DNA of 64,000 nt, taken from NCBI GenBank assembly GCA_016840405.1, contig JAEOSK010000009.1, forward strand, positions 1 to 64,000. Direction: 5' to 3'. The DNA is from Candidatus Hermodarchaeum yapensis (GTDB lineage Archaea > Asgardarchaeota > Hermodarchaeia > Hermodarchaeales > Hermodarchaeaceae). Position numbers and translations under genes: made by a program. The notes under the pieces were generated by a model. That model ran no database searches. It was not told the origin of the DNA and was given only the letters and a program-made list of their open reading frames with translations. This document shows, piece by piece, positions 19,833 to 23,929 of the stretch (positions are counted from its first letter, which is position 1; every line of letters begins with the position of its first letter).

Positions 19833-21936
19833 TTGAAACGTGATCAACGTTTTAGAGAATTATTACAGCTAATGACTAATCCTGATAATATCCGGAATAT
19901 TGGGATAATTGCACACATAGATCATGGAAAAACCACACTTACTGACTCATTACTTGCTAATGCTGGACTGCTCTCATCAAGTCTTGTGGGTCAAGCACGG
20001 GCATTAGATTTCCTTGAAGAAGAGCAACGTCGAGGAAACGTAATTGCGAATTATCGCAGACGCCTCAATAACGATAAAATCTGCTAACATATCATTGCTC
20101 CATGATTATCAGGGAAAGCGCTATGTGGTCAATTTAGTTGATACTCCAGGACATATCGATTTTAGTGGGAAAGTAACCAGGGCCATGCGTGCCATTGATG
20201 GCGCTATTGTTGTCGTAGATGCAGTAGAGGGAGTAATGGCACAAACAGAAAGTGTAATTCGATCAGCAATCAAAGAACGAGTTCAACCAGTTCTATTCAT
20301 TAATAAAATTGATCGATTAATTCGGGAACTAAAGCTTTCAGCACACCAAATTCAGGAAAAACTAACGGAAATAATTCAAGAAACCAATAATGTTATCGAA
20401 GTAGCATTCGAATCAGAAAATGACTTTGATTGGACTGTGAGCACCCAAGCCAACACAGTTGCTTTTGGTTCTGCACTTCATAAATGGGCTTTCACAGTCG
20501 AGCAAATGAAAAAAGAAAGCCTTCATTTTAAGGATATCATAGAAAGTTATCAGAACAACGAATATGAAAAATTAATCGCTCTGCTCCCCATTCATCTACC
20601 AATCCTGAATATGATTTTAGATCACCTTCCGTCACCAATTAAAGCCCAATCATATCGTACCAAATATATTTGGAAAGGCGATCTTCAATCCCCAGCCGGA
20701 GTTGCATTGCGCAGCTGCAAACCGGAAAACCCTCTTTTTATTGGGATTACAAAAATCGTTACCAAATCAAAGCACGGTCCTGTGGGAGTTGGTCGTATTT
20801 TTTCAGGCACCATTAGAAAAGGGTCTCAAATACAGGTTTTCCCATCAGACCAACTACACAAAGCTCAACGGATAACTTTGTTCATGGGTGCTCGACAAGT
20901 CGTTATTCCTTCTTTGACTGCAGGTAACATATGTGGGATAATCGGTCTTGAAGATATTCAAGCGGGAGATACAATCACTGGGCAAAATATTCCTCAAGGT
21001 ATGGTTTCATTTGAAGAAATCACTTATGCTAGCGACCCCGTTGTGACCATCGCAATAGAGCCAAAACACCCTAGGGAACTACCACGATTGCTATCTCTTC
21101 TTGAAACAATTTCAAAAGGAGATCCTAATTTAATTTTTTCAGTAAATGAGCAAACGGGAGAGAATCTACTCTCAGGTTTAGGTCTATTACATTTAGAAAT
21201 CGCCCTAAAGGACATTGAGGAATTAGGAGTCCAAGTGGACGCTTCTGATCCAATTGTACTCTACCGTGAGACACCTAATACCAGCATCATAATGCCTGAA
21301 ATGCATCAAAGCCCAAATGAACAAAATGAAATAAAATTGGAAATCTCTCCCCACGACACCACTACTATTGAAGATGAGATAATGTATCAGGATAATCGGA
21401 ATAACTTGCTAACGGTTATTTCTTCAATATCAATTCCTGAATCAGATAGTACGTCGATAATCGCCGGTTTTAATTGGGCTATGGAAAGGGGTCCTCTCTG
21501 TTCAGAGCCTATGGGCCTTACACTCATCAAAATCACCGACATTAAACTCAGTGACAATTTAGCTGAAAGAGGAAGAGTAGAACTGATGTCCATGGTTAAG
21601 GAGGCAATTTTCAAAGCCTTTGAAGTAGGATCACCAACGCTTCTTGAACCAATATATACAATACAAGTAGTAGTCCCTAATGAATATTTGAAGAATATTA
21701 CAGGAGTTATTATTTCAAAACGTGGACAAGTTGAAAAAGTTGACCATAAAGAGATACTAGTGACAATAACAGGAGTACTACCTGTAAGTGAATCATTTGA
21801 TTTAGCTGATATTCTTCGATCAAAGTCCGCTGGGAAGGCAATTTGGCAAACGAAGTTTTCTCATTGGAAAGTTATACCAAGTCAGCGGGCTAAAACCATA
21901 ATATCAGAAATTAGGAAAAGAAGAGGTCTAAGTTGA
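19833..21936 (+). CDS. Elongation factor 2 family GTPase (probable EF-2 paralog), interrupted by an intron at 20038-20068; 690 aa after splicing
   Basis: [10 protein letters not shown]|ITIKS after splicing, [21 protein letters not shown]; split into two frames in the ORF track. Confidence 0.92.
20038..20068 (+). other. Bulge-helix-bulge-type intron in EF-2 mRNA (31 nt)
   Basis: GAGG/CCTC 4-bp helix with AAA and AAT bulges and an internal hairpin; cuts after the second bulge base restore GGA ATA ACG ATA AAA. Confidence 0.85.
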
Positions 21937-21949
21937 GGAGGGATACAAA

Positions 21950-22447
21950 ATCGTTCTTCGAGTTGCCGTGATTGGAAGTAGTGGGAAGATTTCACCTGAG
22001 CTAAGTCGTGTTGCTGAAAAAATAGGTAAAGAAATTGCTCGTAGAGGAGCAATCCTGATTTCTGGCGGGAGAGATGGGGTTATGGAGGCGGTTTCTAAAG
22101 GGGCAAAGGATGAGAATGGATTGGTAGTAGGTATTCTCCCAGAAGATACTGAGGTTAAAGCAAATCCGTATCTTGATATTGCCATTTTAACAGGAATTGG
22201 ATTAGCCCGCAATTATATCAATGTCGTTTCTAGTGATGCAATAATTAGCATTGCCGGGTCAGGAGGAACATTAAGTGAAATTGGATACGCGATTGCTTTA
22301 CAAAAACCATTGATTCTGTTAATGGGGACTGGAGGCGTTACTGACTTGATAGCTAGCCACCATTCGTTGTTTCCAAATGCAACTATTCATTTAGCAGAAA
22401 CACCCTCTGAAGCAGTTAATTTGGTATTTCGTAGTTATTCCAAATGA
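21950..22447 (+). CDS. LOG family / TIGR00725-like protein
   Basis: GGRDGVMEAVSKGA, GIGLARN, GTLSEI; start uncertain (ATC 21950 or GTG 21968). Confidence 0.85.
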   Translation: MVLRVAVIGSSGKISPELSRVAEKIGKEIARRGAILISGGRDGVMEAVSKGAKDENGLVVGILPEDTEVKANPYLDIAILTGIGLARNYINVVSSDAIISIAGSGGTLSEIGYAIALQKPLILLMGTGGVTDLIASHHSLFPNATIHLAETPSEAVNLVFRSYSK

Positions 22448-22467: not shown

Positions 22468-22761
22468 TTACCCAAAGATATACTGCCACGGTGGGTTAAA
22501 TACAAACCATTGTATTGCGATAAAAAGTATGATTCCCCCAAGAACCATTTTCTTCCCCTTTTTTGGATTAGACCCCGTGAACCAGTTAATGAGCCCTAAT
22601 GCGATGAGGAGTACTGCATTAAATATTCCGATTAAAAGTAGGAGGTTCCAACCTGTAAGTAGGTAATATTCAATTTGTTCGAGGAGTTGTTGAAAGGAAA
22701 GATTTGATTCTGGGATAGTGAACGTAGTTTTCACCCAACATTTTCTTATGAAGAGATACAA
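22468..22761 (-). CDS. Small two-TM membrane protein
   Basis: Two hydrophobic helices separated by 'NPKKGKK'; start uncertain. Confidence 0.6.
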   Translation of the reverse strand: MYLFIRKCWVKTTFTIPESNLSFQQLLEQIEYYLLTGWNLLLLIGIFNAVLLIALGLINWFTGSNPKKGKKMVLGGIILFIAIQWFVFNPPWQYIFG

Positions 22762-22825
22762 AAACTCCCAAAAAGGAAGGGAATTAATACAAACAGGTAA
22801 TTACAATCAAATTAGTGAAGAAAAT

Positions 22826-23929
22826 ATGTGGCGGTTAACAAGAGGTGATGCTGTCACTGTCTGGTCAAATGAGATAGTTGCTAAAAGATTTGCCAGGTAC
22901 CGATCGATAATTGATCTTCAACTTCCTGCGAGATACCTAATTGCTCGTAACATAGCTGTTGATTATTCTCCCTCAGATACCCTTACAAACCTTTGGAAGA
23001 GCCATAATAAAGCTCAAAGAGAATTCCAAAAGCAATTCTCCAAAATTAAGAATGAAACATTCGAGATGAGAGAGGAACCCATTTCTCCTTCTTTTATTGA
23101 TTTGAAAGCGACAATAGCGGATCGAATTCTCCATCAATGTCATTTTTGTGAACGGAAGTGTAACGTAGATAGGGCTGAAAAACTAGGTTTTTGCAATGTA
23201 GATCACACAAGTTACATCTCCTCTGCTTTTCTGCACACGGGGGAAGAGCCTCCCCTTGTTCCTTCAGGTACGATATTCTTCAGTGGGTGTAACTTTCGAT
23301 GTGCCCATTGTCAAAATTATGATATTTCGTGTAACCCTACCAACGGAAGCAAAGTTTCACAAACACAATTAGCAAAAATTGCAGATGAATTAGCATCACA
23401 GGGTGCCAAGAACATCAATTATGTCGGTGGTGATCCAACCCCTCATCTACACACAATTCTCTCATCTTTAAGATTGCAAAAATTCAACATCACCCAGCTT
23501 TGGAATTCTAATATGTATTTATCCATGGAATCAATGGACCTTCTTACCGACATTATCGATTTCTGGCTCCCTGATCTCAAATATTTCTCTGACCAATGTG
23601 CTGAGAGAATCTCCGATGCACAAGATTATCCAGCAATAGTCACCCGTAACATTAAGATTGCATATGAAAAGGGGACTAAGGAGATGATTATTCGCCTCTT
23701 GGTATTACCCAACCATCTACATTGCTGTGTAATTCCTATTCTAGATTGGATAGCTGAAAACACGCCTTTGGCCCTAGTCAATATAATGGCACAATATCGA
23801 CCTTTATGGAAAGTGTTAGAAAAACCTGAAATCTACAAAGACATCTCACGTCGCGTTAGTAGTGAGGAAATGCATCAAGCCTATGACCATGCAAAAGCAC
23901 TCGGTCTAGAATTTAGATCAGTGAGCTAG
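22826..23929 (+). CDS. Radical SAM protein, PflX-like
   Basis: CNFRCAHC, HTGEEP and CHFCERKC motifs. Confidence 0.88.
   Translation: MWRLTRGDAVTVWSNEIVAKRFARYRSIIDLQLPARYLIARNIAVDYSPSDTLTNLWKSHNKAQREFQKQFSKIKNETFEMREEPISPSFIDLKATIADRILHQCHFCERKCNVDRAEKLGFCNVDHTSYISSAFLHTGEEPPLVPSGTIFFSGCNFRCAHCQNYDISCNPTNGSKVSQTQLAKIADELASQGAKNINYVGGDPTPHLHTILSSLRLQKFNITQLWNSNMYLSMESMDLLTDIIDFWLPDLKYFSDQCAERISDAQDYPAIVTRNIKIAYEKGTKEMIIRLLVLPNHLHCCVIPILDWIAENTPLALVNIMAQYRPLWKVLEKPEIYKDISRRVSSEEMHQAYDHAKALGLEFRSVS

Follow-up and report, generated by a model that had tools for sequence, protein, structure and literature searches.

The window analysed here comprises the 64,000 nucleotides at positions 1 to 64,000 of contig JAEOSK010000009.1 from the genome assembly of Candidatus Hermodarchaeum yapensis (GCA_016840405.1), a member of the Asgardarchaeota, as an initial annotation made from the sequence had supposed. 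The open reading frame (ORF) list of the window includes two ORFs on the + strand, one of 84 aa at 19833-20087 and one of 630 aa in another frame at 20044-21936, which together code for a GTPase of the elongation factor 2 (EF-2) family. The two coding parts are interrupted by a short insert located between the RRG and ITIK codons of the switch I/G2 motif, and removal of positions 20038-20068 joins them in frame at EEEQRRG|ITIKSAN, giving a product of 690 aa. This 31-nt insert is very probably a bulge-helix-bulge (BHB) intron of the relaxed HBh' type in the coding sequence of an archaeal EF-2 paralogue (aEF-2p), which would be spliced from the messenger RNA (mRNA) by the endonuclease EndA and the ligase RtcB.

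The exon 1 frame is open to 20085 and the exon 2 frame from 20044. Exon 2 codes for the remainder of the G domain and for domains II-V, including a degenerate diphthamide loop. The Pfam GTP_EFTU match is divided between the two ORFs (profile positions 2-57 in exon 1 and 54-187 in exon 2) and is followed in exon 2 by matches to the EF-G/EF-2 domains II, III, IV and C. The match to the NCBIfam aEF-2 profile (TIGR00490) is similarly divided, exon 1 covering positions 2-67 and exon 2 those from 69 on, with one residue lacking at the break. The profile coordinates thus abut at the junction, and the restoration of both frame and motif supports a BHB intron. The insert sequence is present in a single copy in the genome and, as no further copy exists, its origin from a repeat or mobile element was rejected.

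The helices, bulges and frames described base by base in the initial annotation match the window sequence exactly (Table 1). Translation of the spliced sequence bears out that cuts placed by the canonical EndA rule, after the second base of each bulge, restore RGITIK, while the unspliced mRNA codes only for the 84-aa fragment of ORF 19833-20087.

Table 1. Coordinates of the interrupted aEF-2p gene, the parts of its predicted intron and two further predicted introns in the genome. Locations without a contig label refer to the window.
Feature	Location	Strand	Remarks
Exon 1 of the aEF-2p gene	19833..20037	+	68 codons and the first base of the Ile codon; P-loop AHIDHGKTT; ends EEEQRRG + A
Outer helix h, 5' strand CGT	20028..20030	+	Pairs with 20071-20073; present in the window, not conserved
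Central helix H, 5' strand GAGG	20032..20035	+	Exon 1 codons for Arg and Gly; pairs with 20063-20066 in 14/14 sequences
5' bulge AAA	20036..20038	+	Invariant in 14/14; cut predicted at 20037/20038 from the canonical rule and the restored Ile codon
Predicted BHB (HBh') intron, 31 nt	20038..20068	+	Begins at base 3 of the 5' bulge and ends at base 2 of the 3' bulge
Inner helix h', 5' strand CGT	20039..20041	+	Pairs with 20060-20062
Distal hairpin	20045..20058	+	TGCGA (20045-49) / TCGCA (20054-58), loop ATTA
Inner helix h', 3' strand ACG	20060..20062	+	Pairs with 20039-20041
Central helix H, 3' strand CCTC	20063..20066	+	Last paired bases of the intron
3' bulge AAT	20067..20069	+	AAT in 12 sequences, AGT in 2; cut predicted at 20068/20069
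Exon 2 of the aEF-2p gene	20069..21936	+	Starts with TA, the rest of the Ile codon; then 621 codons and a stop
Outer helix h, 3' strand ACG	20071..20073	+	Thr codon of exon 2; C/A mismatch between the outer helix and the rest
Predicted BHB intron of cbf5, 42 nt	G000:C30:49918-49959	-	H CTGG/CCAG; bulges ATA and AAA; splicing would give GIINLD|KPPGPTSHEV
Predicted BHB intron of dnaG, 28 nt	L089:1075-1102 = G000:C11:6934-6961	+	H GCCT/GGGT with two G-U pairs; bulges ACA and AAT

The proposal of the initial annotation that a BHB-type intron lies within coding sequence is backed by the structure of the insert and by its conservation, with compensatory changes, in 14 sequences. It is further backed by the fact that splicing would restore the protein exactly, that purifying selection acts on both exons and that the genome encodes EndA and RtcB. 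The class to which the organism belongs is represented by 19 species genomes from one family and two genera, and the junction is assembled in 12 species. An insert occurs at the same codon boundary, between the Gly of RRG and the Ile of ITIK, in all 12 of these species and in both genera, which answers the initial suggestion that orthologues be checked for inserts at this site. It is 31 nt long in 11 of the 12 species; in the remaining one (G014) it measures 30 nt, is in frame and contains a TGA, and the canonical cuts still give RGITIK. Two metagenome contigs, in which exon 2 shares 52-53% amino acid identity, also have the 31-nt insert, with the same genes following downstream, so that 13 of 14 sequences overall have an insert of this length. 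The common ancestor of the class already carried the intron.

Base pairing was counted in two alignments, one of the 12 species and one of 14 sequences (the 12 species and the two metagenome contigs). The central helix H is paired in 14/14 sequences, and in six of them an A-U pair is replaced by G-C with changes on both sides. For the inner helix h', all cells of the alignment (100%) are paired when three pairs are counted in the 12 sequences, and 92.9% when a fourth pair called by RNAalifold is included in the 14; two to three of its pairs have changed on both sides, three being the count with the fourth pair in the 14-sequence alignment. Compensatory changes also occur in three to four pairs of the distal hairpin, and seven pairs overall show changes on both sides. 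In total, 95.2% of cells are paired, as compared to 32-46% after the 3' partners are slid by one to three columns, and the observed covariation score was matched by none of 500 shuffles (0/500). RNAalifold, run unguided, recovers identical helices. The covariation extends into the coding sequence, with the synonymous third base of the exon 1 codon for the second Arg (CGA, CGG or AGG) covarying with the opposing intron base. The canonical cuts yield Ile in 14/14 sequences. For the two sequences with an AGT 3' bulge, the canonical cut gives Ile, while placing both cuts one base upstream would give Val.

Several observations weigh against a BHB intron, or limit the form that it can take. The outer helix h is paired in 55.6% of cells across the 12 species, with two of its three pairs mostly broken, and is restricted to the species of the window and its nearest kin. 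As this helix is not conserved, the conserved motif is classed as a relaxed HBh' motif and fails the strict hBHBh' definition; the structure in the initial annotation therefore stands as regards the central helix, the bulges, the inner helix and the distal stem, though not as regards the outer helix as a conserved element. The 3' cut site consequently falls in a single-stranded tail and not in a closed bulge, which requires an enzyme of the broad specificity that is here predicted from sequence. The inner helix is weakened in the metagenome sequence L087. The minimum free energy (MFE) fold of the local 54 nt is exactly the proposed structure, but it only marginally surpasses shuffled sequences (z = -1.73, with 12 of 200 shuffles equally good), and in a context of 121 nt the MFE prefers other pairings, so that the thermodynamics of the single window sequence are weak evidence. 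A strict motif in fixed register (H of 4 bp, h' of 3 bp and a 3-nt bulge) occurs at 6.9e-4 of genome positions, and the real proof of an excess over chance is the comparative evidence.

Intron-less forms of the gene were sought among its homologues. In a collection of 5.8 billion proteins, no intron-less form of ~690 aa was found among homologues with at least 52% identity once evident fragments were excluded. The non-fragment homologues in this range are calls of exon 2 only (583-666 aa), with the exception of one 904-aa entry that contains intein domains, while the first full-length proteins in the collection share at most 46% identity and belong to other lineages. RGITIK is uninterrupted in other Asgard families. 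A search of Joint Genome Institute (JGI) metagenome contigs with a degenerate pattern of the spliced junction gave two matches only, both to intron-less homologues with 40-46% identity from other lineages; on these grounds they were rejected as complementary DNA from the clade.

Both halves of the gene have long been maintained as coding sequence. Across the class, pairwise comparisons give a median ratio of nonsynonymous to synonymous substitution rates (dN/dS) of 0.10 in exon 2 and 0.04 in the final 56 codons of exon 1, and dS is close to saturation or past it. The downstream frame is thus free of the decay that the initial annotation had named, together with a lack of spliced transcripts, as evidence against an intron.

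The genome encodes two EndA homologues. The first (186 aa) gives a full-length alignment with the catalytic alpha subunit of Aeropyrum pernix EndA (PDB 3p1z_B), its best PDB match, and retains the catalytic Tyr/His/Lys as well as a lysine at the position of K44 in the Crenarchaea-specific loop (CSL). This loop confers broad substrate specificity on EndA, and Asgard EndAs have been reported to carry it (PMC5829648). The second homologue (198 aa) is beta-like, matching the beta subunits of A. pernix and Nanoarchaeum, and apparently lacks the catalytic histidine. RtcB is also present, its gene being divided over two contig ends. The host encodes both an endonuclease predicted to be able to cut relaxed motifs and a 3'-phosphate RNA ligase. 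In the tRNA genes, ARAGORN identified only 20 loci in the 2.7-Mb genome, 12 of which have introns, several with the same helix-bulge layout, and called an intron of 812 nt in the tRNA-Arg gene on contig C54. Interruption has probably kept many tRNA genes from being detected, and heavily interrupted tRNA genes are described in a preprint presenting an Asgard tRNA census (bioRxiv 10.64898/2026.10.13.758758).

On the evidence of these sequences, the aEF-2p mRNA must almost certainly be cut and rejoined before it is translated, with cleavage and ligation predicted and the splicing possibly constitutive. In the precursor mRNA, the last bases of exon 1 (GAGG) and the CCUC with which the paired part of the intron ends would form a central helix of 4 bp, while the inner helix CGU/ACG and the distal hairpin would close the 5' bulge AAA. 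Following cleavage, RtcB would ligate GGA-A to UA-ACG, re-creating the Ile codon of the switch I/G2 motif RGITIK within the 690-aa GTPase frame, and the intron would probably be released as a 31-nt circle.

Translation across the insert by ribosomal recoding, through either a programmed +1 frameshift or a bypass (hopping) with the hairpin as stimulator, was weighed against RNA splicing and appears very improbable. The length of 31 nt (3n+1) and the overlap of the two frames at 20044-20085 make a frameshift formally possible, and a stable hairpin is indeed present, but such a frameshift would insert approximately ten foreign residues into the invariant switch I motif. The 30-nt, in-frame insert of G014 with its TGA would require a different event for the same gene, and readthrough fails to explain the 31-nt forms. 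The sequences also fail the codon test for a bypass of the T4 gene 60 type, since the take-off and landing codons are unmatched: GGA precedes the insert, while its 3' end has no GGA and instead TCA or CAA stands before ATA. What is conserved is the BHB geometry, namely the 4-bp helix, the 3-nt bulge and the cuts that restore Ile, and not a slippery site. A single product in all species is obtained only if the insert is removed from the RNA. It is just as hard to credit a truly split gene, whose two polypeptides would assemble with the hairpin serving as an intercistronic element. Gene callers do annotate two ORFs everywhere, and the TTG at 20044 of the window is a potential start of exon 2, but in six of the 12 orthologues the stretch from the last stop upstream to exon 2 offers no ATG, GTG or TTG. 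The break would moreover separate Gly from Ile-Thr within the G2/switch I loop, and its phase, together with the split Ile codon, is conserved. The exon 1 bases covary with the insert, which an intercistronic spacer would not need.

There is likewise little to recommend a group of explanations in which no joined product arises, whether because EndA cleavage at the BHB serves to destroy the mRNA or to lower its level, as in decay initiated by tRNA endonuclease, or because the locus is a pseudogene or an assembly artefact; we consider this group highly unlikely. In favour of cleavage without productive ligation, the joining of the aEF-2p exons is here a prediction, and the function of aEF-2p is unproven. 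Against it stand the strong purifying selection on both exons while dS is saturated and the exact restoration of frame and Ile in 14 independent assemblies, which would be valueless unless the exons were joined. The low dN/dS with saturated dS rules out a pseudogene. An assembly error, which the initial annotation had named as a possible source of the insert, is ruled out by its recurrence in these 14 assemblies, which are independent metagenome-assembled genomes (MAGs) and contigs from different samples. Splicing of a relaxed BHB intron from the aEF-2p mRNA is the explanation retained.

On the basis of its features, the interrupted gene is assigned to the aEF-2 paralogue aEF-2p and not to the EF-2 translocase. 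It retains the G1-G5 motifs, but the diphthamide loop HxDxxHRG of EF-2 is degenerate and the diphthamide histidine absent, and the second domain IV loop reads QSPNEQN as opposed to SPHKHN in EF-2. The curated TIGR00490 cut-off of 738 bits is not reached, exon 2 scoring 582 bits and exon 1 78 bits. A second EF-2-family gene, found on contigs C23 and C75, has an uninterrupted switch I (EEQERGITIF); in kin this gene is an 802-aa open frame with HEDPAHT in the diphthamide loop. Dph2 was not found in the genome, a provisional result for a MAG that is 86% complete (2.7 Mb). These features agree with those of the Asgard archaea lacking dph genes, which pair a bona fide aEF-2 with a histidine-less paralogue, aEF-2p, which also occurs in Korarchaeota without dph and is probably a ribosome-binding GTPase and not a translocase (Narrowe 2018, PMC6143161). 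As in that description, the interrupted gene has kept its G motifs and lost both the diphthamide histidine and the SPHKHN loop, and it co-occurs with an aEF-2 with His-Thr in the diphthamide loop, while no Dph2 was found; it differs in its intron, the paper mentioning neither an intron nor a split in aEF-2 genes. The naming of the gene as EF-2 in the initial annotation hence holds for the family of GTPases but not for the translocase. Since the gene is aEF-2p and that of the translocase is uninterrupted, the tie that had been proposed between the supply of the translocation factor and tRNA splicing does not follow.

A search for other interrupted genes, as had been recommended at the outset, identified further candidates in the same genome. 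In a relaxed scan for pairs of open frames joined by a BHB motif, in which only the top candidates were inspected, aEF-2p, cbf5 and dnaG ranked near the top (Table 1). The exon 2 open frame of cbf5 extends over 830 codons, which far exceeds the typical length of Cbf5. The dnaG intron contains a 9-bp hairpin, and the canonical cuts give FGQTEGL-L-GEDLDLRELQ. A strict genome-wide scan combining the BHB motif with ORF joining gave 5917 raw candidates, the top ones of which were inspected. Other than aEF-2p, these proved to be neighbouring genes or chance frames and not introns; fumarate hydratase alpha/beta (window ~11174), the UvrA start on C41 and an activase pair on C65 were rejected in this manner. 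The relaxed scan also gave a strong 32-nt BHB-like hairpin (GGGG AAT ... CCCT AGC) at G000:C71:~640-680 on the - strand. Its flanking 'exons' translate to low-complexity peptides, and it is probably the intron of a non-coding RNA gene rather than of a protein gene.

The aEF-2p gene is interrupted in other lineages as well. In G036, from another Asgard family, an aEF-2p-like gene carries a different 31-nt BHB intron inside the P-loop (L026:1368-1398), with H ATGG/CCAT, bulges AAA and ATA and an inner helix of 7 bp, and the canonical cuts restore the protein. The switch I intron described here and the P-loop intron of G036 together indicate that mini-introns were gained at more than one site in this gene family. 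Some aEF-2p homologues are 904-924 aa long. In L017 and L019 (G020 and G031) the match is broken at the P-loop, and the open frame then runs on into HVDHGKCVSGDS, which resembles the start of an intein; precomputed intein and LAGLIDADG domains are found in P0011. In some lineages the aEF-2p gene region seems to carry inteins, and in others BHB introns. Downstream of the gene in the window are a 159-aa ORF (21968-22447), whose counterparts match Pfam LDcluster4, and a gene for a radical-SAM protein (22718-23929), both of which are also conserved in the contigs with 52-53% identity.

The closest known parallel among those compared is the cbf5 pre-mRNA intron of the Crenarchaeota (Desulfurococcales and Sulfolobales), which is 16-44 bp long, has a relaxed motif, disrupts a catalytic codon and occurs in hosts with an (alpha-beta)2 EndA (Watanabe 2002; Yokobori 2009, PMC2738675). 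The aEF-2p intron resembles it as a short coding-sequence intron (30-31 nt) with a relaxed BHB, in a host for which a heterotetrameric (alpha-beta)2 EndA is predicted. Both introns break a functionally essential motif, so that their removal is required, and in both cases some length variants are in frame. They differ in the gene, which here is a translational GTPase paralogue, in the site and in the phylum, here Asgard, and whereas splicing of the crenarchaeal cbf5 was demonstrated by reverse transcription PCR (RT-PCR) and in vitro cleavage, that of aEF-2p is predicted. The present genome additionally has a cbf5 intron of its own. The non-canonical BHB introns of tRNA and rRNA that are cut by (alpha-beta)2 or epsilon2 EndA (PMC5829648) share with it the 4-bp helix, the 3-nt bulges, the cut after the second bulge base and the size range, as well as the enzyme set (Asgard EndA with the L1/CSL loop), and the tRNA genes of the present genome are themselves heavily interrupted. 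In contrast, the substrate here would be an mRNA, whose codons constrain the exon half of the motif and from which the intron has to be removed before translation or faster than translation proceeds.

In eukaryotes, the HAC1/XBP1 mRNAs are cleaved by IRE1 and joined by tRNA ligase or RtcB, constituting a regulated stress switch. The aEF-2p intron is similarly spliceosome-independent, short (26 nt in XBP1), frame-changing and bounded by stem-loops, with a ligase of tRNA splicing predicted to join the exons, and RtcB is common to it and the metazoan pathway. The endonuclease of that pathway is, however, IRE1 and not EndA/TSEN, and, of the two, only the splicing of HAC1/XBP1 is known to be regulated. 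A further archaeal mRNA with a BHB, that of HVO_1309 in Haloferax volcanii, reportedly carries it in the 5' untranslated region. This mRNA is, as is proposed for that of aEF-2p, a BHB-bearing substrate of the splicing endonuclease, its spliced form having been detected by RNA-seq (Schwarz 2020, PMC7714728, as summarised in PMC10485636), but the host enzyme is of the alpha2 type. The same review, from 2023, counts two archaeal mRNAs, cbf5 and HVO_1309, as established cases of such splicing and anticipates more (PMC10485636). In the literature searched, endonuclease-dependent splicing of an archaeal coding sequence is documented only for the crenarchaeal cbf5, with one further spliced mRNA in Haloferax. 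No report of an intron in EF-2, aEF-2p or any Asgard protein-coding gene was found in the full-text literature, the coverage of which was incomplete. The aEF-2p intron would thus add a second kind of gene, in the Asgard archaea and with unusually clean comparative proof, together with at least two more interrupted genes in the same genome.

One practical consequence concerns annotation. Public records of the gene (P0006, P0007, P0015, P0019 and others) are labelled 'GTP-binding protein' or 'elongation factor 2' and comprise 583-666 aa, corresponding to exon 2 only, while exon 1 appears as a separate ORF of 67-86 aa. The public annotations of aEF-2p are therefore N-terminally truncated, and such introns need to be considered in gene calling, completeness estimates and EF-2 phylogenies of Asgard MAGs.

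As the unspliced mRNA yields only the 84-aa fragment, the intron could conceivably be a control point that has been kept and not a passive passenger, with the output of aEF-2p gated by EndA/RtcB activity or by the interval between transcription and translation, as in HAC1/XBP1, and with aEF-2p being one of a set of mRNA mini-introns in the class (cbf5 and dnaG in this genome). We regard this as a speculative and rather unlikely extension of the splicing proposed here. If it were true, the closest relatives of eukaryotes would routinely splice their messages and would have to uncouple translation partly from transcription. Splicing of aEF-2p itself would mean that some messages in these relatives of eukaryotes are untranslatable as transcribed, which bears on the origin of intron-bearing genes and on the uncoupling of transcription and translation.

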